Notes: generated by a model not told the origin, from the sequence alone. Positions 4,975 to 27,209 are shown, counted from the first letter of the stretch. The stretch: 29,198 bases of DNA from Candidatus Sulfotelmatobacter sp. (GCA_030045935.1 JASIEN010000401.1:1-29198), one strand, 5' to 3'. Translations and numbers: made by a program.

Positions 4975-5907
4975 TCAATGATGATGCTCTTCCCCATCGC
5001 CTACCGGAATCACGCAGCCATGTGCAACTTCACATTCCGCGTGCTCAAACTGGATCGTCGTGTGGTCAATGCGAAAGTCGTGGTGGAGGCACTCTTTTAC
5101 GTCACGCAAAATGCGTTCGCTGACTGAGGGAGGAATGTCGGCAATAGAAATATGGCAGGAAAGCGCCCGCGATTCCGATCCGATGCTCCATACATGCAGA
5201 TCATGCACATCGTTGACTCCCTCAACCGCACGAATCGCGGTTTCCACCAGTTCCAGCTTAATGCCGCGTGGAGTGCCTTCCAGCAGAATGTTGAGCGTTT
5301 CGCGCACAATACCGAAACCGGACCACAGAATCAGCACACCGATTCCGACGGACAGCGCTGAATCGATCCAGTAATCGCCAGTGGCGAGAATGGCCCAACC
5401 GCCGACAATCACGGCGGCGGTCGAGAGCGTGTCGCCCACCTCGTGCAGCAGGGCGCTGCGAATGTTTACATCCCCGCCGCCGGGTCGCATAGCCGAGCGA
5501 TAGAGCAGCAACGCGATCGCTCCATTCATCACTACCCCGGTGGCCGCGACCCACATCATCATGCCAGCACGAACGTGCTCCGGGTGCTGCAACCGTTTGA
5601 AAGCTTCGTAAAAAATGAGGAACGCCACCGCGACCAACGACACTGCATTCACCAGTGCTACCAACACTCCGGCACGATGATAGCCGTAAGTTTTGGTCGA
5701 ACTGGCCGGCCGTGATTGCAGATAGACGGCAAACAGCGAAAGCAGGAGGGCGAGAAAATCCGAGAGATTGTGCCCGGCTTCAGACAGCAGGGCCAGGGAG
5801 TGCGCGCGAATACCGGCTACGACCAGCAGTACGATATATGCCAGCGTGACCCAGAGGGAAATACCTAATACGCGCTTGGGATTGCCCCCATGTCCATGCA
5901 CGTGCAT
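4975..5907 (-). CDS. czcD: Cation diffusion facilitator (CzcD/ZitB-like Zn/Co/Cd exporter)
   Basis: SLALLSEAGHNLSD (TM2 HxxxD), LLHEVGD (TM5 HxxxD), TYGYHR, VHDLHVW and HTTIQFE motifs, with His-rich termini. Confidence 0.92.
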   Translation of the reverse strand: MHVHGHGGNPKRVLGISLWVTLAYIVLLVVAGIRAHSLALLSEAGHNLSDFLALLLSLFAVYLQSRPASSTKTYGYHRAGVLVALVNAVSLVAVAFLIFYEAFKRLQHPEHVRAGMMMWVAATGVVMNGAIALLLYRSAMRPGGGDVNIRSALLHEVGDTLSTAAVIVGGWAILATGDYWIDSALSVGIGVLILWSGFGIVRETLNILLEGTPRGIKLELVETAIRAVEGVNDVHDLHVWSIGSESRALSCHISIADIPPSVSERILRDVKECLHHDFRIDHTTIQFEHAECEVAHGCVIPVGDGEEHHH

Positions 5908-6611: not shown

Positions 6612-6627
6612 TGTGACCCCAATCACA
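6612..6627. promoter_or_regulatory. Perfect CRP-type box between divergent bfr and the acyl-CoA ligase gene
   Basis: TGTGA-CCCCAA-TCACA. A very degenerate partner GATGA-CCCGAG-CCCTA begins 22 bp downstream, at 6634. Confidence 0.7.
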
Positions 6628-6730
6628 AGAAAGGATGACCCGAGCCCTAACGACGCAATTAATCGATCAGGCAGAATTAAAAAAGGACTACCATAAGCGA
6701 CGATTAACTCTCTATGCAGGAGAAGCGAAA

Positions 6731-9490
6731 TTGAGCGCCGCCGACCCAGCCATTTCGAACCGAGCAGACCCGCTGAGCAGCGGAGCGGTTGAGGAGCGGC
6801 ATAGCCTGGATGCACTTTTCCATCCCCGCTCCGTTGCCGTGATTGGCGCAACGGACCGGCCTGCAACCGTGGGCCGGACGATTCTGCAGAATCTTCTGCG
6901 TCCAGAGTTTCGCGGAAAGGTGTACGCTGTCAATCCGCAACGCGCCGAAGTTCTTGGCCTCAAGTCCTACAAAAGCATTCGCGATCTTCCCGAGCGTATA
7001 GATCTGGCGGTGCTGGCGACACCGGCGGCTACGATCGCAGCGCTGATTGGGGAGTGCGTCGATGCGGGTGCGCGCAGCGCGATTGTGGTCTCCGCAGGAT
7101 TCCGCGAGCGTGGGACTGCGGGAGCAGAGCTGGAGCAGCAGATCCGAAAGCAACTGGACCGGGGCGCGATGCGTTTGATTGGACCGAACTGCCTGGGAGT
7201 CATGAATCCCGGGGTTGGACTGAATGCGACTTTTGCCAAGGATTTGCCGAGGACCGGCAGCGTCGCTTTCCTCAGCCAAAGCGGCGCGCTGCTCACCTCA
7301 ATTCTCGATTGGAGCCAGCGCGAGCAGGTTGGATACAGCGCGATCGTCTCGACCGGGTCCATGCTGGATGTTGGCTGGGGCGATCTGATCTACCATTTCG
7401 CCGATGATCCGCGCACCAAAAGCATTCTTCTTTATATGGAGTCGGTGGGCGATGCGCGGTCATTTCTGTCGGCGGCACGAGAAGTGGCGTTGAGCAAGCC
7501 GATCATCGTTATCAAGGCTGGCAGATCGGAAGCAGGAACCAGGGCAGCGGCCTCGCACACTGGCACTCTGACCGGGAGCGATGAAGTGCTGGAGGCAGCT
7601 TTCCGGCGCAGCGGCGTGCTGCGTGTGCAGAGCATCGCAGATCTTTTCTACATGGCGGAGGTCCTGGGCAAACAGCCGCGGCCTCTCGGGCCTCGACTTA
7701 CAATCCTCACTAACGCAGGGGGTCCGGGTGTGCTGGCGGCTGATTCTTTGGTAGCCAATCATGGCGAACTGGCTCCGCTTTCCGAACACAGCTTGCAGGC
7801 CTTAAACGAGTTCTTGCCCGAGCACTGGAGCCATAACAATCCCATTGACGTGCTGGGCGATGCCGATTCTGAACGCTACGGAAAAGCCCTCGAGATCGCG
7901 TCCAAAGATCCTAACAGTGACGGCTTGCTCACCATTTTGTGCCCGCAAGGCATGACCGATCCTTCCGACGTCGCAACCCGGCTGAAAGCATACGCGCGCT
8001 CCACCGGCAAGCCGTTGCTGGCGAGCTGGATGGGCGGTGTCAGTACGGCGGAGGGCATAAATATTCTGAACGCAGCCGGAGTGCCGACCTTCAATTATCC
8101 CGATACCGCGGCGCGCGTGTTTACGTACATGTGGCGCTATACCTACAACCTGCGGAGCCTTTACGAAACCCCAAGCGTGGCGGAAGGGCCGGAACTCGAC
8201 AATGCTTCGCGGGAACAGGTGCGCGGCATCATCGATAAGGCGCGTGCATCCGGGCGAACGCTGCTCGACGAGTTTGAATCGAAGAAACTTCTGTCGGTTT
8301 ACGGAATACCTACGGTTGAGACGCGCGTCGCGCGCAATGTGGACGAGGCTCTAGCGCAGGCTCGGGAGATCGGATTTCCGGTTGTGCTGAAGGTTCTTTC
8401 CCAGACGATCACCCACAAAACTGACGTGGGCGGAGTCAAGCTGAACCTGCGCGATGAAGATGCAGTGCGGGCTGCGTATGCCGCAATCCAATCGTCGGTG
8501 ACGGAGAAAGTGGGCGGCAGCCAATTCGCCGGCGTGACGGTACAACCTATGGTAGGGCTGGAAGGGTATGAGTTGATCATCGGCAGCAGCATCGATCCCC
8601 AGTTCGGGCCGGTGCTGCTGTTCGGCTCGGGCGGTCAGTTGGTTGAGGTTTACCAGGACCGCGCGCTCGCGCTGCCCCCGCTGAACACGACGCTGGCGCA
8701 GCGCATGATGGAACAGACCCACATTTTTCGCGCACTGAAAGGTGTGCGCGGACGCAAGCCGGTTGACCTGGCAGCGCTCGAGGGCTTGTTGGTCCGCTTC
8801 GGTCAGCTCGTGATCGAGCAACCGTGGATTGCGGAGATCGATATCAATCCGCTTCTCGCTTCCTCCGAGCGGCTGCTGGCACTGGATGCGCGGGTCGTAC
8901 TGCATCCGCCATCGATGAAGCCGGAACAGTTGCCGAAACCCGCCATTCGTCCCTATCCGTCGCAATATGTAACTCAGTGGAGGATGAAAGATGGCAGGGA
9001 AGCGACGATCCGGCCGATTCGTCCGGAAGATGAGCCACTGATGGTTGATTTTCATGGAACGCTTTCCGAAAGGACGGTCTATCTGCGTTACTTTTCCGCG
9101 ATGAGCCTGGGCAAGCGCGTCGATCATGAGCGGCTGCTGCGCATCTGCTTTGGAGGTTACGACCGGGAAATCGTGCTGGTGGCCGACGCCAAGGATCCCG
9201 CCACTGGCAACCATAAAATTCTTGGCGTGGGGCGCCTGAATAAGCTGCATACCGAGAAGGAGGCAGAAGTTGCGGTTCTGGTTTCAGATCCCTACCAGCA
9301 ACAGGGGGTGGGGACGGAATTGCTTCGCTGTTGCCTAGAGGTTGCGAAGAAAGAAAAACTTTCCCGCCTGGTGGCCGAGTTGTTGTTCGACAACGTGGGA
9401 ATGGAAAGGCTTTTCAAGAAATTTCATTTCACCTTCCGCACGCATGAAAATTCAGAATCGATCACCGCGGCTTTGGAGCTTCAGAACTGA
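6731..9490 (+). CDS. ADP-forming acyl/acetate-CoA ligase fused to a C-terminal GNAT (Pat/YfiQ-like architecture)
   Basis: CoA-binding AVIGAT, IGPNCLG, SQSGA, AASHTG, NAGGPGV, ATP-grasp HKTDVGGV and EIDINP, and [18 protein letters not shown] at 6731 with AGGAG 8 nt upstream is preferred; the ORF is open from ATG 6635. Confidence 0.9.
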
Positions 9491-12345: not shown

Positions 12346-15138
12346 ATGAGCGACGGGCGTGTCCTCGCGGAGCAAATGTCGGCCAGCACACACTCGTGGA
12401 GAACCTTGCCCGTCGGCGGACGGATCTTTGTCGGTCTGGTCGTCCTTGCGGGAATGGCATCGCTGTTACAGGCTGCCATTTACCAGAACAGCAAAAACAT
12501 TGCCGAATTTATCTGCTATCTAGGGGTCGCGATTCTGGCGTCCCGGCTGCGGGTAAGTTTGCCTGGCATAACCGGCACTCTCTCGGTCAATTTCCTCTTC
12601 GTTCTGGTGGCCGTAGCCGAGTTGAGCTACAGCGAAGCGGTGACTTTGGCAGCGGTTTCGATGCTGGCCCAGAATTTGTATCAGCAGCGCCCGGGCGCGA
12701 TTCAGTTGACGTTCAACCTTTGCACGGCATCGCTTTCGACCGCCCTGGCGTATGTGGTTTACCACAATGCGCTTGTACTGGAGTTTGTCAATAACCGGCC
12801 GTTGACTCTATGTGTTGCGGCTGCTACGTATTTCCTTGTCAATGCCGGGTGCGTGGCGATTGTTATTTCGGTCAGTGAGGCGAAGTCGCTGCGCAGCATT
12901 CTGGTTGACTGCTATTTCTGGTCGTTTCCCTACTACCTGGTGGGAGCGGGCATCGCGGGTGCGATCGGCTGGTTTAACCGCGAGTTCAACTGGGAAACTT
13001 CGCTGCTCTTCGTTCCAGCCATGTATCTCATCTACGGGTCATACCGCCTCTATCTGGGGAAACTCGAGGATGAGAAGCGCCATGTGGAAGAAATTGCCGA
13101 CCTGCATCTAAGAACGATCGAGGCGTTGGCGCTGGCGATTGAGGCAAAGGACCAGACCACACACGAACACCTGCAACGAGTCCGGGTTTATGCCATCGAG
13201 GTGGCAAAAGAGCTAGGCATGAAAGGCAATGATCTGGAGGCCCTTCATGCGGCCGCGCTACTTCACGATATCGGCAAGTTGGCCGTGCCGGAGCACATTA
13301 TCTCGAAGCCGGGAAGATTGACGCCGGAAGAGTTCGAGAAGATGAAGATTCACACCGTGGTGGGGGCGGAAATTCTGGAGCGGGTGCGGTTTCCCTATCC
13401 GGTTGTACCGATTGTGCGGGCGCACCATGAAAAATGGGACGGCTCGGGTTATCCCTATGGATTGAAGGCGGAAGAAATTCCGATGGGAGCACGCATTCTT
13501 TCGGCCGTCGATTATCTGGATGCGCTTGCCTCGGACCGGCAGTATCGCCGCGGCGTGCCTCTGGACGAAGTAATGAAGCGCCTCACGGAGGAATCGGGAA
13601 AATCCTTCGACCCGAAAGTGGTTGATGTTCTCCAGAAGAGATATCGACAGCTTGAGAGGTTGGCAATGGCGCAGTCTTCCCACGATAGCGGGCTGGGCCT
13701 GCCCAGCAACCTTAAGATTGAACGTGGTATTGCGCCGGCGGCAGGTTTTGAGAAGGCTGCAGTGGTCGACTTGCCGGGCCGCGAAGCTACATTCCTGGCG
13801 TCGATTGCGGCTGCGCGGCAGGAGGCACAAGCTCTGTTCGAGCTAAGCCAGGATCTTGGAGCCTCGCTGAGCTTGGGTGAGACACTATCGGTCTTTTCAG
13901 TGAAGCTGAAGCCGATGGTTCCTTACGATTCGATTGCCATTTATGTTCTGCGCGACAGCATGCTTGTGCCGGAGTATGTGAACGGCGACAATTACCGTCT
14001 CTTTTCTTCTTTGCGAATCCCCGTGGGCCAGGGGCTTTCAGGTTGGGTTGCGCAGAACAAAAAACCAATTGTGAACGGGAATCCCTCGGTCGAACCGGGG
14101 TACTTGAACGATCCCGCAAAGTTCAGCACGCTGCGGTCGGCGCTGGCGGTGCCATTGGAGGGAGTAAGCGGCATCACCGGAGTTTTGGCGCTCTATCGAA
14201 GTGACAGGGACGCCTTTACCTCAGACCATTTAAGAATTCTGCTGGCCGTAAGCGGCAAGATGGCGCTGGCCATTGAGAACGCACTCAAATATGAACAGGC
14301 GGAAAGCTCCGCCACTACCGATTATCTCACCGGCTTGCCCAATGCGCGTTCGCTTTTCCTGCAGCTCGACCGCGAACTGGCGCGCTGCAAGCGCGACAAT
14401 CTGCCGCTTGCCGTGATGGTCTGTGATATGAACGGCTTCAAGAAAATCAACGACCGTTTCGGACACCTTGAGGGTAATCGCGTGCTGCGGCTCTTCGCGC
14501 AGGCGCTGAAAGACAGTTGCCGCGAGTACGACTACGTGGCGCGTATGGGTGGAGACGAGTTCGTGATCATCGCTCCGGGTCTGCCGGCGGATGCCGCCGC
14601 CAAGAAAGTGGAACAGATTCGTCCGCTGGCACGGCAGGCGGGATTCGAGGTTTGTGGCGAGGAAATTTTGTCGCTGAGCGTAGGCGTAGCGATTTCTCCC
14701 GTGGACAGCAGTGATGCGGAGCAATTGCTGACGCAGGCCGACCGCCGCATGTATCTGGAAAAGCAGAAGCAGCCGTCGCAGAAGGACCAGCGGTTGCACA
14801 CGCGCATGAAGTGCCGGCTTACCATCGAACTGCATCCGCAGCCGGGAGGAGAAACAATTTTTGGAAATATGATCGATATCAGTCTGGGGGGGTGCTATGT
14901 GGAGACGAGCGCCATTCTGGCACCGGAGACTAACCTTAAGCTGGTATTCTCCATCGATGACGGTACGCTCACGGCCGAAGGTACGATTGCCAGAATTCAT
15001 CCTGGATCCGGCGTAGCGGTGAAATTCAAAGAGATGAGCCGCGAAACGCGCGAGAAAATGTACAGGGTGCTGGAGTTTGTGCAGAATACGACGAATATAT
15101 ACAACGACCGCTACATGCAGAGTTTGTTCAAGCAGTAA
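12346..15138 (+). CDS. Membrane-anchored c-di-GMP protein: multi-TM sensor, HD-GYP, GAF, GGDEF and PilZ domains
   Basis: About 7 hydrophobic segments; LLHDIGK and HHEKWDGSGYP; GAF (GQGLSGWV, LAVPL); DYLTGLPN and RMGGDEF; C-terminal RLHTR and DISLGG. Confidence 0.92.
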   Translation: MSDGRVLAEQMSASTHSWRTLPVGGRIFVGLVVLAGMASLLQAAIYQNSKNIAEFICYLGVAILASRLRVSLPGITGTLSVNFLFVLVAVAELSYSEAVTLAAVSMLAQNLYQQRPGAIQLTFNLCTASLSTALAYVVYHNALVLEFVNNRPLTLCVAAATYFLVNAGCVAIVISVSEAKSLRSILVDCYFWSFPYYLVGAGIAGAIGWFNREFNWETSLLFVPAMYLIYGSYRLYLGKLEDEKRHVEEIADLHLRTIEALALAIEAKDQTTHEHLQRVRVYAIEVAKELGMKGNDLEALHAAALLHDIGKLAVPEHIISKPGRLTPEEFEKMKIHTVVGAEILERVRFPYPVVPIVRAHHEKWDGSGYPYGLKAEEIPMGARILSAVDYLDALASDRQYRRGVPLDEVMKRLTEESGKSFDPKVVDVLQKRYRQLERLAMAQSSHDSGLGLPSNLKIERGIAPAAGFEKAAVVDLPGREATFLASIAAARQEAQALFELSQDLGASLSLGETLSVFSVKLKPMVPYDSIAIYVLRDSMLVPEYVNGDNYRLFSSLRIPVGQGLSGWVAQNKKPIVNGNPSVEPGYLNDPAKFSTLRSALAVPLEGVSGITGVLALYRSDRDAFTSDHLRILLAVSGKMALAIENALKYEQAESSATTDYLTGLPNARSLFLQLDRELARCKRDNLPLAVMVCDMNGFKKINDRFGHLEGNRVLRLFAQALKDSCREYDYVARMGGDEFVIIAPGLPADAAAKKVEQIRPLARQAGFEVCGEEILSLSVGVAISPVDSSDAEQLLTQADRRMYLEKQKQPSQKDQRLHTRMKCRLTIELHPQPGGETIFGNMIDISLGGCYVETSAILAPETNLKLVFSIDDGTLTAEGTIARIHPGSGVAVKFKEMSRETREKMYRVLEFVQNTTNIYNDRYMQSLFKQ

Positions 15139-18292: not shown

Positions 18293-18330
18293 TGTGATGG
18301 GAATCACCGATCTAGGTGAGGGTGGGCACA
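18293..18330. promoter_or_regulatory. Tandem CRP-type boxes upstream of korDABC
   Basis: TGTGA-TGGGAA-TCACC (18293) and GGTGA-GGGTGG-GCACA (18315), 22 bp apart. CATACT lies on the - strand at 18270-18265. Confidence 0.65.
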
Positions 18331-18401
18331 ACAAGGTCAATTCCCGGGGCGGAACCGCGGCAATTAAGCGGAAACCTCGCCCTGTCCAGGCACTACAGTG
18401 T

Positions 18402-18439
18402 TGTGTTCTGCAACACAAATTCCTGTGACTCGGGTCATA
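18402..18439. promoter_or_regulatory. Tandem CRP-type boxes upstream of the cytochrome c gene
   Basis: TGTGT-TCTGCA-ACACA (18402) and TGTGA-CTCGGG-TCATA (18424), 22 bp apart. Confidence 0.65.
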
Positions 18440-20321: not shown

Positions 20322-23300
20322 TTATTTGGTTGCCGCCGATGTGGTTTCTGCGACCGCCTTGGCCAGCTCCTTGCCGTTCTTGCGCTGCGCCAGATATTCG
20401 TACAACCGGTATCGAGTTTCCGTATCATGCTGCGCCTGTTCCCAAAGATGTTTGGCGTCCTCCGGCTTGCTTTTCAGCAGCATCTTGAAACGCGTTTCCA
20501 TGTTCATGAAGTCCTGCACCTTGCGCGTAGGAGCCCGCGAGTCAAGAATCAGAGGATTTTCACCCGCCGCGGCGCGCTCGGGATTATAGCGGTAGAGCAG
20601 CCACTGACCGGAGTCTACTGCCGCTTTCTGATCGGACATGCCGGTTGTCATGTTGATGCCATGGGCAATGCAGTGTGAGTAGGCGATGATCAGGCTTGGC
20701 CCGTCATAGGCCTCGGCTTCGAGGAAAGCTTTGAGGGTGTGCTCGTCTTTCGCGCCCATGGCTACACTGGCGACGTAAATGTTTCCGTAGCTCATCGCAA
20801 TGAGGCCGAGATCTTTCTTGGGACCCGGTTTGCCGCCGGCGGCAAACTTCGCCACCGCCGCTCGCGGAGTGGATTTCGAAGCCTGGCCTCCGGTGTTGGA
20901 GTAAACCTCGGTGTCGAGCACCAATACGTTGACGTTACGGCCGCTGGCCAGCACATGATCAAGGCCGCCGTAGCCGATGTCATAAGCCCAGCCGTCACCC
21001 CCGACGATCCAAACGCTTTTCTTGACCAGCAAATCGGCGATGGCGAGCAGTTGCCGGGCCTCCGAAGAATTCAGGCCGCGCAGTTTTTCTTTCAGCAGCT
21101 CAACCCGCTGCCGCTGCTCATGAATATCGGCCTCGTCCTTTTGCGGGAAGGCGGTCAGTGCAGTCGCGAGTTCTGTGCCGATCGTGTTGGCCAACCGCTT
21201 TACCAATTCGCGTGCAAATTCAGTCTGCTTGTCGATGGAGAGCCTGAATCCGAGGCCAAATTCGGCATTATCTTCGAATAACGAATTCGACCACGCCGGG
21301 CCACGCCCTTGCGCATTCTTGGCCCACGGAGTGGTGGGAAGATTTCCACCATAAATCGAAGAGCATCCGGTCGCGTTGGCGATCACGGCGCGGTCGCCAA
21401 ATAACTGTGACATCAGTTTCAGGTAAGGGGTTTCGCCGCAGCCTGTGCAAGCACCGGAGAACTCGAACAATGGCTCCTGAATCTGCTGCTGGCGAATGTT
21501 AGCGACTTTGATGTTTCGGCGGTCGAGTTCGGGAATTTTCAGGAAGAACTTCCAGTTCTCGCTTTCAGGAGCACGCAGGGGCGGCTGTGGCACCATGTTG
21601 ATTGCCTTCAACCGCGTTTCCGTCTTGTTCTTTGCCGGACAAACTTCTACACAGATGCCGCAACCCGTGCAGTCTTCCGGTGCAACCTGAATGGTGTATT
21701 TCAACCCCTGCCATTCTTTGTCGCGCGCGTCGGTGGATTTGAAGGTGGCCGGAGCACCTGCCAGTTCTTTAGAGTCGTACACCTTCATGCGGATCACAGC
21801 ATGCGGGCAGACCATGGCGCATTTGCCACATTGAATGCAGACCTTTTCATCCCACGCGGGAATCTCCAGGGCCAGATTGCGCTTCTCCCATTTGGCTGTG
21901 CCGGTAGGGAAAGTGCCGTCGACAGGAAATGCGCTCACGGGAAGCTCATCGCCACGCCCGGCGTACATCGTGGCCAGAACATCTCTCTCGAAAGCAGGCG
22001 CCAAGATGGAAAACGGCGCGGGCATCTCGATCGTGCTGGTCACGCTGGCGGGGACTTTAACTTCAAACAGGTGCGCCAGCGCTTCATCCACCGCTTTCAT
22101 GTTTTTCTGGACAATCTCTTCGCCTTTTTTGCCGTAAGTGTCGCGGATGGATTTGCGAATCGCGTCGATGGCCTGGTCTCCCGGTAGAACCTTCGAGATC
22201 GCGAAGAAGCAGACCTGCAAGATCGTGTTCATGCGGCTGCCCATACCGGTATCGCGCGCAACCTGATAGGCGTCGATCACATAAAATTTCGCTTTCCTTG
22301 CGATGATCTGCTGCTGAACTGCACGCGGCAAATGATTCCAGACCTCATTTGGACCGAATGGGCTGTTGAGCAGGAAAGTTCCACCCTCAACCAGTGCGCT
22401 CAGCATGTCGTAGCGTTCGAGAAAAATCCATTGATGACATGCCACGAAATTCGCTTGCGAAACCAGATAGCTCGAGCGGATCGGTTGCGGGCCGAAGCGC
22501 AAGTGCGAGACCGTCATCGCGCCTGACTTTTTCGAGTCGTAAACAAAGTACCCTTGGGCGTAGTTGTCTGTGTTCTCGCCGATGATCTTGATCGAGTTCT
22601 TGTTCGCGCCGACAGTCCCATCCGCGCCCAAACCATAAAACAACGCACGCACAACGTTGTCCGGTTCAGTCGAAAATTCCGGGTTGTACGACAGGCTGGT
22701 GTGGCTTACGTCATCCAGAATGCCAACCGTGAAATGTTCTTTTGGTTTTTGCGCTTTGAGATTGTCGTAAACCGCTTTGACCATCGCAGGAGTAAATTCC
22801 TTCGACGATAATCCATAGCGTCCGCCAATCACGAACGGCATTGTCTTCAGCTTGCCGTAATTTCGATTCAACCCCTCGTGCAGTGCGTTCACCACATCGA
22901 CGTACAGCGGTTCGCCAACTGCCCCCGCTTCCTTGGTGCGGTCCAGAACTGAAATCCTCTTTACGCTTGCCGGCAATGCTTCCATGAAATCTTTAACCGA
23001 AAACGGCCGGTACAAGCGCACTTTCAGCAGTCCGAGCTTTTCTCCTCGCGCATTCAGATGTTCCACTGTTTCGTGGGCGACTTCTGCGCCTGATCCCATC
23101 ATCACGATCACGTGTTCTGCATCCGGGGCGCCAATGTAATCGAACAGGTGATAAGAACGGCCGACCACCTGCGCGAATTTCTCCATCGCGGCGCGCACCT
23201 TGTCCGGGCATTCGTCGTAAAAGGAATTCGCGCGCTCGCGCATTTGAAAAAAAACATCGGGGTTTTGCGCCGTCCCGCGCAAAATGGGGTGGTCCGGCGA

Positions 23301-23930
23301 CAGCGCACGGCCGCGATGCTCGAAGACGCGGTCCATATCAATGAGGGCGCGCATGTCGTCTTCGCTCAGCATCTCGATCTTGTTCACTTCGTGAGAAGTG
23401 CGAAAGCCATCGAAGAAATGCAGGAAAGGAATACGCGACTCCAAAGATGAAGCGTGCGCAATCAAGGCCATATCCATGGCTTCCTGCACGGAATTGGAGC
23501 TGAGCATGGCCCAGCCCGTGGTGCGGCAGAACATCACGTCACTGTGATCGCCGAAAATGGAGAGCGCGTGCGTGGCCACGGTGCGAGCCGAGATATGGAA
23601 CGTTGTTGGCGTCAATTCCCCGGCAATTTTGTTCATGTTGGGGATCATCAACAGCAGGCCCTGCGATGCGGTAAACGTGGTTGATAGCGCGCCTGTCTGT
23701 AGAGCCCCGTGAACCGCACCCGCCGCGCCGCCCTCGCTTTGCATTTCAATGACATGCGGCACCGTCCCCCAGACGTTTTGTATGCCCTGCGAGGCCCACT
23801 CGTCGGCCCATTCGCCCATGTTTGAAGAAGGAGTGATCGGGTAAATGGCGATCACTTCGTTGGCGCGGTAAGCGACATATGCCACCGCCTCGTTGGCGTC
23901 CATGGTCTTGATCTTGCGTTTTGCGGTCAT
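20322..23930 (-). CDS. nifJ: Pyruvate:ferredoxin (flavodoxin) oxidoreductase, homodimeric type
   Basis: YPITPS, EMQSEGGAAG, CIQCGKCAMVCP, CTGCGICVEVCP, GACTGCGE, TPP motif GGDGWAYDIG and EVYSNTGGQ; 1202 aa. Confidence 0.98.
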   Translation of the reverse strand: MTAKRKIKTMDANEAVAYVAYRANEVIAIYPITPSSNMGEWADEWASQGIQNVWGTVPHVIEMQSEGGAAGAVHGALQTGALSTTFTASQGLLLMIPNMNKIAGELTPTTFHISARTVATHALSIFGDHSDVMFCRTTGWAMLSSNSVQEAMDMALIAHASSLESRIPFLHFFDGFRTSHEVNKIEMLSEDDMRALIDMDRVFEHRGRALSPDHPILRGTAQNPDVFFQMRERANSFYDECPDKVRAAMEKFAQVVGRSYHLFDYIGAPDAEHVIVMMGSGAEVAHETVEHLNARGEKLGLLKVRLYRPFSVKDFMEALPASVKRISVLDRTKEAGAVGEPLYVDVVNALHEGLNRNYGKLKTMPFVIGGRYGLSSKEFTPAMVKAVYDNLKAQKPKEHFTVGILDDVSHTSLSYNPEFSTEPDNVVRALFYGLGADGTVGANKNSIKIIGENTDNYAQGYFVYDSKKSGAMTVSHLRFGPQPIRSSYLVSQANFVACHQWIFLERYDMLSALVEGGTFLLNSPFGPNEVWNHLPRAVQQQIIARKAKFYVIDAYQVARDTGMGSRMNTILQVCFFAISKVLPGDQAIDAIRKSIRDTYGKKGEEIVQKNMKAVDEALAHLFEVKVPASVTSTIEMPAPFSILAPAFERDVLATMYAGRGDELPVSAFPVDGTFPTGTAKWEKRNLALEIPAWDEKVCIQCGKCAMVCPHAVIRMKVYDSKELAGAPATFKSTDARDKEWQGLKYTIQVAPEDCTGCGICVEVCPAKNKTETRLKAINMVPQPPLRAPESENWKFFLKIPELDRRNIKVANIRQQQIQEPLFEFSGACTGCGETPYLKLMSQLFGDRAVIANATGCSSIYGGNLPTTPWAKNAQGRGPAWSNSLFEDNAEFGLGFRLSIDKQTEFARELVKRLANTIGTELATALTAFPQKDEADIHEQRQRVELLKEKLRGLNSSEARQLLAIADLLVKKSVWIVGGDGWAYDIGYGGLDHVLASGRNVNVLVLDTEVYSNTGGQASKSTPRAAVAKFAAGGKPGPKKDLGLIAMSYGNIYVASVAMGAKDEHTLKAFLEAEAYDGPSLIIAYSHCIAHGINMTTGMSDQKAAVDSGQWLLYRYNPERAAAGENPLILDSRAPTRKVQDFMNMETRFKMLLKSKPEDAKHLWEQAQHDTETRYRLYEYLAQRKNGKELAKAVAETTSAATK

Positions 23931-23998
23931 TATTCCCCCGCTGGCTGTTGTTTAGCTGAGCCGATGATTAAGCATGGATGATGGGCGCCGATGTCGTC

Positions 23999-24036
23999 TG
24001 CCAAGTCGGTCACATGAGGATGTGATCTTCGTCACA
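23999..24036. promoter_or_regulatory. Tandem CRP-type boxes upstream of nifJ
   Basis: TGCCA-AGTCGG-TCACA (23999) and perfect TGTGA-TCTTCG-TCACA (24021), 22 bp apart. Confidence 0.72.
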
Positions 24037-24120
24037 TCGGCAAAATGAACGGCTTAGACCAGCCGGCGTGAAACTCGGTCGTGGCTCAGTTTGAAAACAA
24101 AGCGACCCGCACAATCGGGC

Positions 24121-24266
24121 GTCATCCTGAGCGCAGGCGCTTTTCAGCCGGGGCGAAGCATCTCCTGCCCCACGGAATTGTGCAGCCGGAGATCCCCGTT
24201 CGCCGCGCTCACTTGCTCAGGGCAGGCTCTCGCCCGGCTGGTGGAAACGCGGGCGTTCGGGATGAC
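24121..24266. mobile_element. 146-bp MITE/REP-like palindromic element
   Basis: Terminal inverted repeats GTCATCCTGAGCG / CGTTCGGGATGAC (both mismatches G-U compatible) and an inner GCGAAGCATCTCC / GGAGAT...TTCGC stem. Related copies at 19139 and 4889. Confidence 0.6.
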
Positions 24267-24333
24267 ACTATGTGAGAACGCGGAAAGTTCAAGCCGGACC
24301 ACTACCTGAAATTCAGCCCGTCACGCGCAGTTG

Positions 24334-24371
24334 TGTGACGCAGGTCACATCTGCGCGTGCCCCATGGCACA
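24334..24371. promoter_or_regulatory. Tandem CRP-type boxes upstream of the Crp/Fnr regulator gene (candidate autoregulation)
   Basis: Perfect TGTGA-CGCAGG-TCACA (24334) and CGTGC-CCCATG-GCACA (24356), 22 bp apart. GACACT at 24393. Confidence 0.72.
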
Positions 24372-24426
24372 GCCAAGTGGATCGTTGCAAACGACACTGA
24401 AAAGGAATGGGAGGAAGGTGGTCCCC

Positions 24427-25146
24427 ATGAACTCACCCTATGGACTGGAAATTGTCGAAAGCTGCCTGACTTGCAAGTTTCGCTCAGATCGCATCTTTTG
24501 CGACTTGCAGCCTTCGGCGTTGCAGGCTTTCGAAGAAATCAAATACACGACGGCCTATCCTGAGGGCGCCATTTTGTTTGTGGAAAAGCAGGCGCCACGC
24601 GGGATTTTCGTCATCTGCAAGGGCAGTGTAAAGATGTCGGTCAGCGCTCCCAATGGCAAGACCATGATTGTGAAAATTGCCGACGCCGGCGAAGTGCTCG
24701 GCCTGAGCGCCACCGTTTCCGGCCGGCCTTACGAAGTGACCGCCGAGACCATCGATCCCTGCCAGATCAACTTCGTCAAGCGAGAGGATTTTCTGCGCTT
24801 TCTGAAGAATGACATCCAGGTTTGCTTCAAAGTTGCGGAGCACCTGAGCGAAAAGTATCACACGGTGTGCAACGAAATCCGCTGTCTAGGCCTGTCACAC
24901 TCGGCTGCGGAAAAACTGGCAAAGCTGCTGCTGGAATGGAGCTCCAAGAATGGGGAGGCTTCCAGACCTGAACCGCGCGTAAAGCTGCGGCTTACCCACG
25001 AGGAGATCGCGCAGATGATCGGGACCTCACGCGAGACGGTCACTCGCCTGCTCGCCGATCTGAAGAAACACCAGATCCTGAACACTCGCGGTTCCACGCT
25101 GGTCATACGCAATCAGGCGGCGCTGCGCGAATTGGCCAACAATTGA
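24427..25146 (+). CDS. Crp/Fnr-family transcriptional regulator with an N-terminal Cys cluster
   Basis: cNMP-type beta-barrel (LFVEKQAPRGIFVICKGSVK, GEVLG), wHTH LTHEEIAQMIGTSRETVTR, and N-terminal C13-x2-C16-x8-C25. ATG 24427 follows GGAGG. Confidence 0.93.
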   Translation: MNSPYGLEIVESCLTCKFRSDRIFCDLQPSALQAFEEIKYTTAYPEGAILFVEKQAPRGIFVICKGSVKMSVSAPNGKTMIVKIADAGEVLGLSATVSGRPYEVTAETIDPCQINFVKREDFLRFLKNDIQVCFKVAEHLSEKYHTVCNEIRCLGLSHSAAEKLAKLLLEWSSKNGEASRPEPRVKLRLTHEEIAQMIGTSRETVTRLLADLKKHQILNTRGSTLVIRNQAALRELANN

Positions 25147-25786: not shown

Positions 25787-25824
25787 GGTGATCGCCGTCA
25801 CAATTTTCCGTGACCATAGTCACC
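25787..25824. promoter_or_regulatory. Tandem CRP-type boxes upstream of the radical SAM gene
   Basis: GGTGA-TCGCCG-TCACA (25787) and CGTGA-CCATAG-TCACC (25809), 22 bp apart. TATCGT at 25846. Confidence 0.65.
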
Positions 25825-25879: not shown

Positions 25880-25898
25880 AATGGGCCAGGAGGCCGCA

Positions 25899-27209
25899 AT
25901 GGCTTCATCGAACGGTAACGGACATCCACAACACAACAATCAAAATAAACCGCGGCTGATTTTCTGGGAGCTCACCAAGGGCTGCAATCTTCGATGCATT
26001 CATTGCCGCGCCAGCGCGACTGAACTGAGTTCTCCCACGGATCTGCCCACGAGTGCTGCAAAACACATCATCGATCAAATTGCAGAGATCTCTCATCCGA
26101 TTCTCGTGCTGAGTGGCGGCGAGCCGCTGTTCCGCTCGGATATCTTCGAACTCGCCCGCTACGGAACTGAAAAAGGCCTTCGGGTAGCGCTGGCGACAAA
26201 CGGCACGCTGGTGACGAAGCCGGTCGCGCAGAAAATTGTGGACTCCGGCGTGAAGCGCGTAGCCATTAGTCTGGACGGCGCCGATGCGCCCACGCACGAT
26301 GCTTTTCGCGGAATTCCGGGCGCATTTGACGCTGCTATTATCGGCTTCCGCAACCTGAAAGATCTCGGGATGTCGGTGCAGATCAACACCACGATTGCCC
26401 GGCACAACGCTCACCAGCTTCCCGCGGTACTCGAACTGGCACGATCGCTGCAAGCCGACGCTCTGCACACATTCCTGCTGGTTCCCGTCGGGTGCGGCGT
26501 TGACATTGCCGCTGAGCAGATGGTTCCTCCCGAAGAGTACGAGAGAATTTTGAACTGGTTTTATGATCAGTCGTTGGCTGGCGACATCGAACTGAAAGCC
26601 ACTTGCGCCCCACACTACTTCCGCGTGGTGCGGCAGCGACGCGCTGCCGAGCGCCGGGCCGCAGTTCAGATTCAAGGGGCAATTCCAGCAGCCTCGAGCT
26701 CTCCAAGCCGAGGTCCTCTGGGATCACCGACAGCACCGGACATCGGACCCACCGAGATGACTATGCCCGGTTCCACCGGAATCGAGTTGAAGCCGCATGG
26801 AATCGGCCGGCCAGTTGGACATCCCGGTGCTCATCCCTCGGACATGAACGCGATGACGAAGGGCTGCCTGGCTGGCACGGCGGTGTGCTTTATCTCGCAT
26901 CAGGGAGAAGTCTATCCGTGCGGATATCTGCCGGCTTTAGCGGGAGACCTGAAGAAGCAGTCTTTTGCGGACATCTGGAACGACGCAGTCGTATTCAATG
27001 AACTGCGCGACGTCAACAATCTCACCGGCAAATGCGGCTGCTGCGAATTCCGTAACGTCTGCATGGGCTGCCGCGCCCGCGCCTTTGCCGCTACCGGAAG
27101 TTACCTCGACGAAGAACCATTCTGCGTGTATGAGCCGGGTGCCGGAAACCCTGCGTCAAAACATTCGCATGAACAGGACTCGCCCACGCCAGCCGGAGCG
27201 AGGAGCTGA
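25899..27209 (+). CDS. Radical SAM/SPASM protein, AhbD (heme b synthase)/NirJ-like
   Basis: WELTKGCNLRCIHCRA (CxxxCxxC), SGGEPL, KATCAPHY, GCLAG, CGYLP and SPASM CGCCEFRNVCMGCRARA. AGGAGG lies 5 nt before ATG 25899. The N-terminus fits AhbD better than AhbC, but the exact function is not provable from sequence. Confidence 0.85.
   Translation: MASSNGNGHPQHNNQNKPRLIFWELTKGCNLRCIHCRASATELSSPTDLPTSAAKHIIDQIAEISHPILVLSGGEPLFRSDIFELARYGTEKGLRVALATNGTLVTKPVAQKIVDSGVKRVAISLDGADAPTHDAFRGIPGAFDAAIIGFRNLKDLGMSVQINTTIARHNAHQLPAVLELARSLQADALHTFLLVPVGCGVDIAAEQMVPPEEYERILNWFYDQSLAGDIELKATCAPHYFRVVRQRRAAERRAAVQIQGAIPAASSSPSRGPLGSPTAPDIGPTEMTMPGSTGIELKPHGIGRPVGHPGAHPSDMNAMTKGCLAGTAVCFISHQGEVYPCGYLPALAGDLKKQSFADIWNDAVVFNELRDVNNLTGKCGCCEFRNVCMGCRARAFAATGSYLDEEPFCVYEPGAGNPASKHSHEQDSPTPAGARS

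Follow-up and report, generated by a model that had tools for sequence, protein, structure and literature searches.

Three ways of sensing oxygen have been described among the transcription factors that make up the Crp/Fnr superfamily, namely FNR with an N-terminal iron-sulfur (Fe-S) cluster, the Gram-positive FNRs with a C-terminal cluster, and FixK2 with one reactive cysteine; the cluster of the Bacillus-type Fnr is C-terminal and operates with no dimer-monomer transition (PMC12937710). Among other members, HcpR1 of Desulfovibrio binds TGTGA-N6-TCACA, HcpR2 of the same genus is proposed to be an Fe-S protein (PMC5701242), and the HcpR branches have been described as lacking an FNR-type cysteine motif (PMC1274295). 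Here we analyze a 29,198-nucleotide stretch of DNA from Candidatus Sulfotelmatobacter sp. (GCA_030045935.1 JASIEN010000401.1:1-29198; henceforth the window), a peat-soil acidobacterium, in which the gene at 24427..25146 on the + strand encodes a 239-amino-acid regulator, P0001, an uncharacterised variant within this well-known type. Our best reading, to which we give a probability of about 60%, is that P0001 is a dimeric Crp/Fnr transcription factor of a distinct and so far Acidobacteriota-only lineage, which functions as an Fe-S sensor of oxygen or redox state, with a cluster probably held by C13, C16, C25 and C64 and binding of its operator boxes under low oxygen.

The Bacillus subtilis-type Fnr, a known Fe-S oxygen sensor, reads the box TGTGA-N6-TCACA, and P0001 shares with it both the superfamily and the type of box. 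Unlike that protein, P0001 has its cysteine triad at the N-terminus and no cysteine past C153, and hence does not possess a C-terminal cluster. HcpR1 and HcpR2 are similarly Crp/Fnr proteins, from anaerobes, with a box of this type or a proposed Fe-S dependence, but their targets are genes of nitrosative stress such as hcp, whereas no hcp-type genes were seen beside the boxes found here. With the CRP and GlxR proteins of Mycobacterium tuberculosis, Corynebacterium glutamicum and Escherichia coli, which include its best matches, P0001 has in common the R-E-x-x-x-R recognition helix and the type of box; unlike CRP, it has no cyclic AMP (cAMP) contacts, bears an N-terminal cysteine extension and falls under the CRP equivalog cut-off.

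P0001 shares with FNR of E. coli and Aliivibrio fischeri the fold, the N-terminal cysteine extension, the lack of a cAMP pocket, a predicted low-oxygen regulon including cytochrome bd, and probable autoregulation. It departs from FNR in the spacing of its third cysteine (8 residues past the second, as against 5 in FNR), in a conserved fourth cysteine on strand 3 rather than at C122, in a helix reading R-E-T-V-T-R rather than V-E-T-I-S-R, in boxes of the form TGTGA-N6-TCACA rather than TTGAT-N4-ATCAA, in a Val or Ala at the position of D154, and in an overall identity of only ~21%. Of the features by which FNR proper is recognized, P0001 lacks a score above the cut-off of the curated model, the full C20/C23/C29/C122 ligand set, and the E-x-x-S-R helix together with TTGAT-N4-ATCAA sites. 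In the literature searched we found no description of an N-terminal triad combined with a strand-3 fourth cysteine and CRP-type sites, and a full-text search returned nothing joining FNR-like regulators with Acidobacteriota or Sulfotelmatobacter; the two physiology studies consulted name no Crp/Fnr-type oxygen regulator (PMC8407424, PMC11636273).

The gene and its family

The sequence just 5' of the ATG at 24427, GGAGGAAGG, is purine-rich, and a Shine-Dalgarno region can be read from it at 24410..24421 (+). An open reading frame (ORF) finder also offered a longer frame beginning with a TTG at 24331. However, the ATG is supported as the start by the purine-rich ribosome-binding stretch, by the homologues, essentially all of which are 239-240 amino acids long and begin at the same Met, and by the fact that the TTG frame would cover the operator box at 24334.

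P0001 belongs to the Crp/Fnr superfamily. It matches the Pfam models PF00027 cNMP_binding (60.8 bits, residues 43-129), PF13545 HTH_Crp_2 (67.9 bits, residues 162-236) and PF00325 Crp (37.3 bits), all above their cut-offs, and the defining β-roll, dimerisation helix and C-terminal Crp-type helix-turn-helix are recovered in the Pfam matches, the secondary structure of a model and the fold matches of that model. This AlphaFold2 (AF2) model, built from 93 family sequences (alignment A2), has a mean predicted local distance difference test (pLDDT) score of 89.4, with only 72-79 in the N-terminal 30 residues. It displays the CRP/FNR fold, with template modelling (TM) scores of 0.83 to the holo-FNR of A. 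fischeri and 0.83-0.84 to the cAMP-bound CRP of M. tuberculosis, and FLP of Lactobacillus casei is among its structural neighbours. By sequence, the best solved relatives are the actinobacterial CRP/GlxR proteins (E = 3.5e-16), with A. fischeri FNR at ~1e-8, and no reviewed protein is above ~23% identity.

P0001 reaches no named NCBIfam equivalog, and all its scores lie far under the respective cut-offs (bits/cut-off: FtrB 80.5/211, CRP 74.2/266, Fnr PRK11161 47.5/228, FnrL 46.9/300, NtcA 43.5/245, FixK 41.4/300 and YeiL 26.6/180). The relatives that carry names are all Acidobacteriota (Terriglobales, Terriglobia and Thermoanaerobaculia), the more distant family members being labelled Terriglobia and Thermoanaerobaculia. 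The DNA analyzed here stems from metagenomes of peat and soil; the sequencing runs found were all of DNA, with no RNA run among them.

Cysteines, effector pocket and recognition helix

Cysteines make up 8 of the 239 residues of P0001 and occupy positions 13, 16, 25, 64, 112, 133, 148 and 153. A first-pass annotation of this DNA had reported the pattern C13-x2-C16-x8-C25-x86-C112 with four further cysteines, exactly as the translation has it, had described it as a cysteine cluster of the FNR type, and had named C13, C16, C25 and C112 as the ligands of a cluster. The triad, C13-x2-C16-x8-C25 (24463..24501, +), would form the cluster-binding loop. To place it we aligned P0001 to the FNR and CRP of E. 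coli with MAFFT and compared the family profile with each of these sequences by hhalign. The two methods agree in setting C13 on FNR C20 and C16 on FNR C23, with C25 three residues past FNR C29. Seven of the eight cysteines, namely C13, C16, C25, C64, C112, C133 and C148, do not vary among 120 homologues that are 75-90% identical; judged from the sequences, the cysteine content of P0001 is not a matter of chance. Since all seven are invariant there, these close homologues cannot tell the positions apart.

Greater resolution comes from a wider set of representatives of 50%-identity clusters (E <= 1e-30), of which there are 489, with 150 of the 489 listed, at 36-73% identity. Co-variation was counted over the 131 cluster representatives covering the cysteine columns and assessed by a Fisher test, which ignores shared ancestry, so that its p-values are a guide only. 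The triad is intact in 90 of the 131 diverged representatives, and among the diverged relatives listed the recurring tetrad is C13/C16/C25/C64: position 64 is Cys in 88 of the 90 sequences with an intact triad, as opposed to 20 of the 42 in which the triad is broken (p = 1.5e-11). C64 (codon at 24616..24618, +), which both alignment methods place on FNR R72 and CRP V43, is the penultimate residue of the strand spanning 59-65 in the AF2 model, at the end of β-strand 3, while C112 (codon at 24760..24762, +) is the first residue of the strand spanning 112-118, the start of β-strand 8, as assigned by DSSP. The jelly-roll of cyclic nucleotide-type domains has strands 3 and 8 side by side and antiparallel, and hence C64, C112 and the position of FNR C122 are expected on one small surface patch. 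As a lead only, FNR residues 71-75 and 116-121 are part of a single surface patch, AR1. On our reading C64 is most likely the fourth ligand of the family.

What these four cysteines hold need not be a cluster. A Cys4 site without Fe-S, whether it binds zinc structurally or acts as a thiol-disulfide switch akin to L. casei FLP or the FixK2 cysteine, would answer to oxidant stress or some other signal. A CxxC with a distant cysteine is typical of zinc sites and disulfides too, the strands bearing C64 and C112 are presumably neighbours, so that the two could form a disulfide, FLP is a structural neighbour, and redox sensing in the superfamily can proceed with no cluster, as with Cys183 of FixK2 (PMC12937710). 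However, four co-conserved cysteines, the first two of them in FNR register, suit a cluster better than a two-cysteine switch, and the regulon predicted below is one of low-oxygen energy metabolism and not of oxidative stress. Hence, we regard the zinc or thiol site as unlikely and retain the Fe-S cluster.

Within the Fe-S reading itself, the alternative of the first-pass annotation was that C112 is the equivalent of FNR C122 and completes the cluster, with C64 uninvolved. C112 is indeed invariant in close orthologues and lies on the same β-strand as FNR C122. Both MAFFT and hhalign, though, put FNR C122 on N115 and set C112 three residues earlier, on FNR S119 and CRP C92, which means that C112 does not occupy the C122 column. 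Moreover, position 112 shows no dependence on the triad, being Cys in 45 of the 90 sequences with an intact triad and in 23 of the 42 that have lost it (p = 0.71), and it may be occupied by Cys, Ser, Thr or Ala among diverged relatives; it is C64 that tracks the triad. A ligand role for C112 thus appears improbable. The conservation of the cysteines, which had been proposed as a check, accordingly holds for C13, C16 and C25, which recur with C64 in diverged relatives, but not for C112, which all close homologues retain but roughly one in two members of the wider family. Whether position 133 or 148 is Cys does not depend significantly on the triad either among the 131 sequences (p = 0.53 and 0.07, respectively), and C133 aligns with FNR R140. 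On our reading C112, C133 and C148 are additions of the Terriglobales orthologue group, placed near the same face as the proposed site.

The β-roll pocket (residues 92-105, GLSATVSGRPYEVT) contains a P-Y/H-E-x-T motif that is conserved across the family. Such a pocket could in principle accommodate a cyclic nucleotide or metabolite as the effector, in which case the cysteines would be incidental or structural. The nearest structures and sequences are those of cAMP-binding actinobacterial CRP and GlxR, and JGI annotates homologues as 'cyclic AMP receptor protein'. Yet of the residues by which CRP contacts cAMP the alignment keeps only G71: E72 is opposite a gap, while R82/S83 are replaced by Y102/E103 and T127/S128 by V147/C148. 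With the CRP equivalog model at 74 bits where its cut-off is 266, and with a four-cysteine co-variation that needs a reason of its own, a small-molecule effector is quite improbable, and we continue with the Fe-S sensor.

The recognition helix S-R-E-T-V-T-R (residues 201-207; 25027..25047, +) has R202 and E203 in all 93 sequences of alignment A2 and R207 in 90 of them, and these align with R180, E181 and R185 of CRP. The G and A of the motif have been tied to R180 and E181 (PMC1274295). A survey of ~6,000 genomes found R180, E181 and R185 to be largely conserved superfamily-wide and placed the ancestor in a broad 'CRP-like' class (PMC12531629). This survey implies that the FNR helix is the derived state and that R-E-x-x-x-R is to be expected in any deep Crp/Fnr lineage, which removes the special status that the CRP-type helix had been accorded.

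The same annotation had presented P0001 as a hybrid, with an FNR-type cysteine cluster joined to a CRP-type DNA-recognition helix. To look for a chimera of an FNR sensor and a CRP DNA-binding domain, we divided the profile of the family into four segments, each of which was scored against E. coli CRP and FNR. The N-terminus (residues 1-30) had no hit to CRP and -0.8 bits to FNR, the β-roll (residues 31-128) 41.1 bits to CRP and 31.4 to FNR, the dimerisation helix (residues 129-160) 3.2 bits to CRP and no hit to FNR, and the DNA-binding domain (residues 161-239) 57.9 bits to CRP and 56.5 to FNR. The chimera was rejected, given that no domain prefers FNR over CRP: the sensor shows no FNR preference, the DNA-binding domain shows no clear CRP preference, both the β-roll and DNA-binding profiles score slightly better on CRP, and the N-terminal 30 residues have no detectable FNR similarity. 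The underlying observations of the first-pass annotation are nonetheless borne out, namely the helix and the pocket at the residues given above, a Crp/Fnr regulator by its Pfam domains in which the cAMP-binding residues are replaced, and a CRP-type helix that would match boxes enriched before low-oxygen genes and its own gene; its interpretation, with C112 as a ligand and the protein as a hybrid, was only partly right.

Operator boxes and the predicted regulon

Allowing up to one mismatch, TGTGA-N6-TCACA occurs six times in the window against 0.63 expected, a count reached in none of 100 shuffles. Across the genome (4.1 Mb, 75% complete) there are 23 perfect boxes where ~2.8 are expected from base composition, the enrichment in window and genome being 8- to 10-fold; 21 of the 23 are intergenic, i.e. 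outside large ORFs. By contrast, the FNR box TTGAT-N4-ATCAA is not enriched, with two in the window against 1.05 expected. P0001 thus combines the equivalents of CRP R180/E181/R185 with predicted sites of the CRP type.

The boxes are often paired. The regulator's own gene is preceded by a tandem operator at 24334..24371, made up of a perfect box (24334-24349) and a weak partner (24356-24371) centred 22 base pairs (bp) away. The divergent gene nifJ, encoding pyruvate:ferredoxin oxidoreductase (PFOR; 20322-23930, -; NCBIfam TIGR02176, 1883 bits), has one at 23999..24036, with an 8/10 box (23999-24014) and a perfect one (24021-24036), and a gene for an AhbD-like radical SAM/SPASM protein (25881-27209, +) has one at 25787..25824 (25787-25802 and 25809-25824). 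Two further pairs (18293/18315 and 18402/18424), together spanning 18293..18439, lie between an operon for a multi-subunit 2-oxoacid:ferredoxin oxidoreductase (OFOR; -) and a cytochrome c gene (+). In all five pairs of the window (18293/18315, 18402/18424, 23999/24021, 24334/24356 and 25787/25809) the spacing is 22 bp from centre to centre, and genome-wide a second box-like site occurs at exactly 22 bp from strong boxes 12 times, as against 1-3 times at other spacings from 8-60 bp. As this amounts to two helix turns between centres, two dimers would lie on one DNA face, and the pairing suggests occupation by two adjacent dimers.

For the regulator, the AhbD-like gene and PFOR, the proximal box is centred 64-76 bp before the ATG. 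From these distances we infer only that the boxes might sit in a class II-type activator position, given short leaders. A scan of 23900-24450 with the sigma-70 consensus found no promoter. Between the PFOR-side and regulator-side pairs there is a GC-rich gap of ~290 bp (24040-24330) with no convincing ORF, Rfam match or consensus promoter, and Rfam matched nothing anywhere in the window.

A single perfect box (6612..6627) is situated between a Dps/ferritin-like gene (-) and a gene for an ADP-forming acyl-CoA ligase fused to GNAT, followed by cydAB (+). Elsewhere in the genome the boxes flank hypD (two boxes), nikR, resB, ccsA, two acetyl-CoA hydrolase/transferase genes, and genes for a D-2-hydroxyacid dehydrogenase, a fumarase/aspartase-type lyase, a carboxyltransferase, a DUF485 protein and TonB-type outer-membrane proteins. 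A DUF485 gene is usually followed by one for an acetate permease. By their predicted products, the box-flanking genes in the window and beyond are a coherent low-oxygen, fermentative set. This composition bears on the least likely alternative, an HcpR-like Fe-S sensor mainly of nitric oxide or nitrosative stress rather than of oxygen, which we consider very improbable: FNR-type clusters also react with nitric oxide, as a study on FnrP notes (PMC4771820), and Desulfovibrio offers both a reader of this very box and a regulator modelled as Fe-S dependent (PMC5701242), but no hcp, nor, nir or flavohaemoglobin-type gene was found beside the 23 perfect boxes.

To examine whether the arrangement is found in relatives, we searched with a 14-sequence alignment and recovered 80 orthologous loci from Terriglobales metagenome-assembled genomes labelled Candidatus Sulfotelmatobacter, Korobacteraceae and Acidobacteriaceae. 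A strong box is present at <=200 bp upstream in 55 of the 80 and a partner box at 22 bp in 52, and C13, C16, C25, C64 and C112 are all kept in 79. The AhbD-like gene accompanies 39 of the loci and PFOR 25, whereas a hemerythrin neighbour is seen in just two and is not conserved. All 24 same-genus genomes sampled contain the family, mostly with 2-5 copies each, as do six of 16 from the sister family. In same-genus genomes boxes with varying spacers precede the orthologue, or a ~53%-identity paralogue, at 54-116 bp from the start codon. Four of these genomes contain 12-42 perfect boxes as opposed to 1-2 matches to a reversed control pattern, and ten sister-family genomes contain 0-4.

A second paralogue is encoded in the same genome as P0001 (L021:2971-3687, +; G000:C697). 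It displays the same cysteine pattern (C-x2-C-x8-C, LC-x-G and PCQ) and an identical GTSRETVTR helix, and its open frame continues 125 codons further upstream. Copies of this paralogue class in three relatives have no box before the gene.

Proposed mechanism and its standing

Taken together, the above comparisons suggest the following mechanism for P0001. The C13/C16/C25 triad and C64 at the end of strand 3 would hold an Fe-S cluster, probably [4Fe-4S], labile to oxygen or redox change, such that the protein would be FNR-like in its working but with a differently placed fourth ligand. The holo-dimer, active under low oxygen, would read TGTGA-N6-TCACA through R202, E203 and R207, in many cases with a pair of dimers side by side on boxes spaced by 22 bp, and would probably activate rather than repress. 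Its predicted targets would be its own gene, the pyruvate- and 2-oxoacid:ferredoxin oxidoreductases, cytochrome bd, an oxygen-independent haem synthase, hydrogenase maturation and cytochrome c biogenesis, along with fermentation genes of the acetate/succinate/propionate type. On oxidation the cluster would be lost.

Several considerations weigh against this reading. A four-cysteine site of this shape could equally bind zinc or act as a thiol switch. The closeness of C64 to the triad would follow from strand topology and co-variation. The co-variation test disregards kinship, although the contrast between positions 64 and 112 is large. The box-rich genomes all belong to one genus, and this correlation, being confounded by kinship, is consistent with the model without proving it independently. 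Further, with a paralogue of the same cysteine pattern and identical helix in the genome, the boxes cannot be assigned to P0001 alone. Finally, the charge of D154 in FNR drives that protein apart into monomers and is key to its monomer-dimer switch at the D154/I151 interface. The residue aligned with it is V147 in P0001 (24865-24867), while 57 of 93 family members have Ala there. Hence the regulator may, speculatively, stay dimeric, as the Bacillus Fnr is reported to do (PMC12937710), and FNR-type oxygen-driven monomerisation may not apply to it.

A bolder version of the proposal would see in the family a third, independently evolved Fe-S architecture for oxygen sensing in Crp/Fnr, with C-x2-C-x8-C and C64 as ligands, a probably constitutive dimer, phased tandem dimers 22 bp apart on CRP-type boxes, and a role as the master low-oxygen switch of Terriglobales; this we put forward tentatively, as possible but on balance doubtful. 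Few bacteria of soil and peat are more abundant than the Terriglobales, whose survival at nanomolar oxygen is now established. For them, the family and its easily recognised operator provide a candidate low-oxygen switch with a predicted regulon of PFOR, OFOR, cytochrome bd, haem synthesis, hydrogenase maturation and fermentation. For the study of FNR, it would represent a variant from nature in which the fourth ligand has moved, the cluster loop is longer and the residue at D154 is neutral, which may be useful for understanding how cluster and DNA binding are coupled.

Some of the genes close to the boxes have features of their own. The AhbD-like protein has its best NCBIfam match in heme b synthase, at 484.9 bits where the cut-off is 500, a match that is split in two by a Pro/Gly/Ser/Ala-rich insertion at residues ~268-325, and the next gene after it encodes a YwiC-like membrane protein. 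On the contig L018 (G000:C772) the two perfect boxes upstream of hypD are at 5014 and 5071, 57 bp apart, and on L008 (G000:C256) a perfect box at 2173 lies between nikR and a gene with a CarboxypepD_reg domain; hydrogenase maturation and nickel control may thus belong to the same regulon. The protein encoded before cydAB (6635-9490, +) is an ADP-forming acetate/acyl-CoA ligase (CoA-binding, Succ_CoA_lig and ATP-grasp_5 domains) fused to a C-terminal GNAT domain. The first ATG of its ORF is only 8 bp past the box at 6612-6627, and its true start may be further downstream. Lastly, the gene at 12346-15138 (+) encodes a 930-amino-acid protein with an HD domain of the HD-GYP type and GAF, GGDEF and PilZ domains, a combination of cyclic diguanylate synthesis, degradation and receptor modules.

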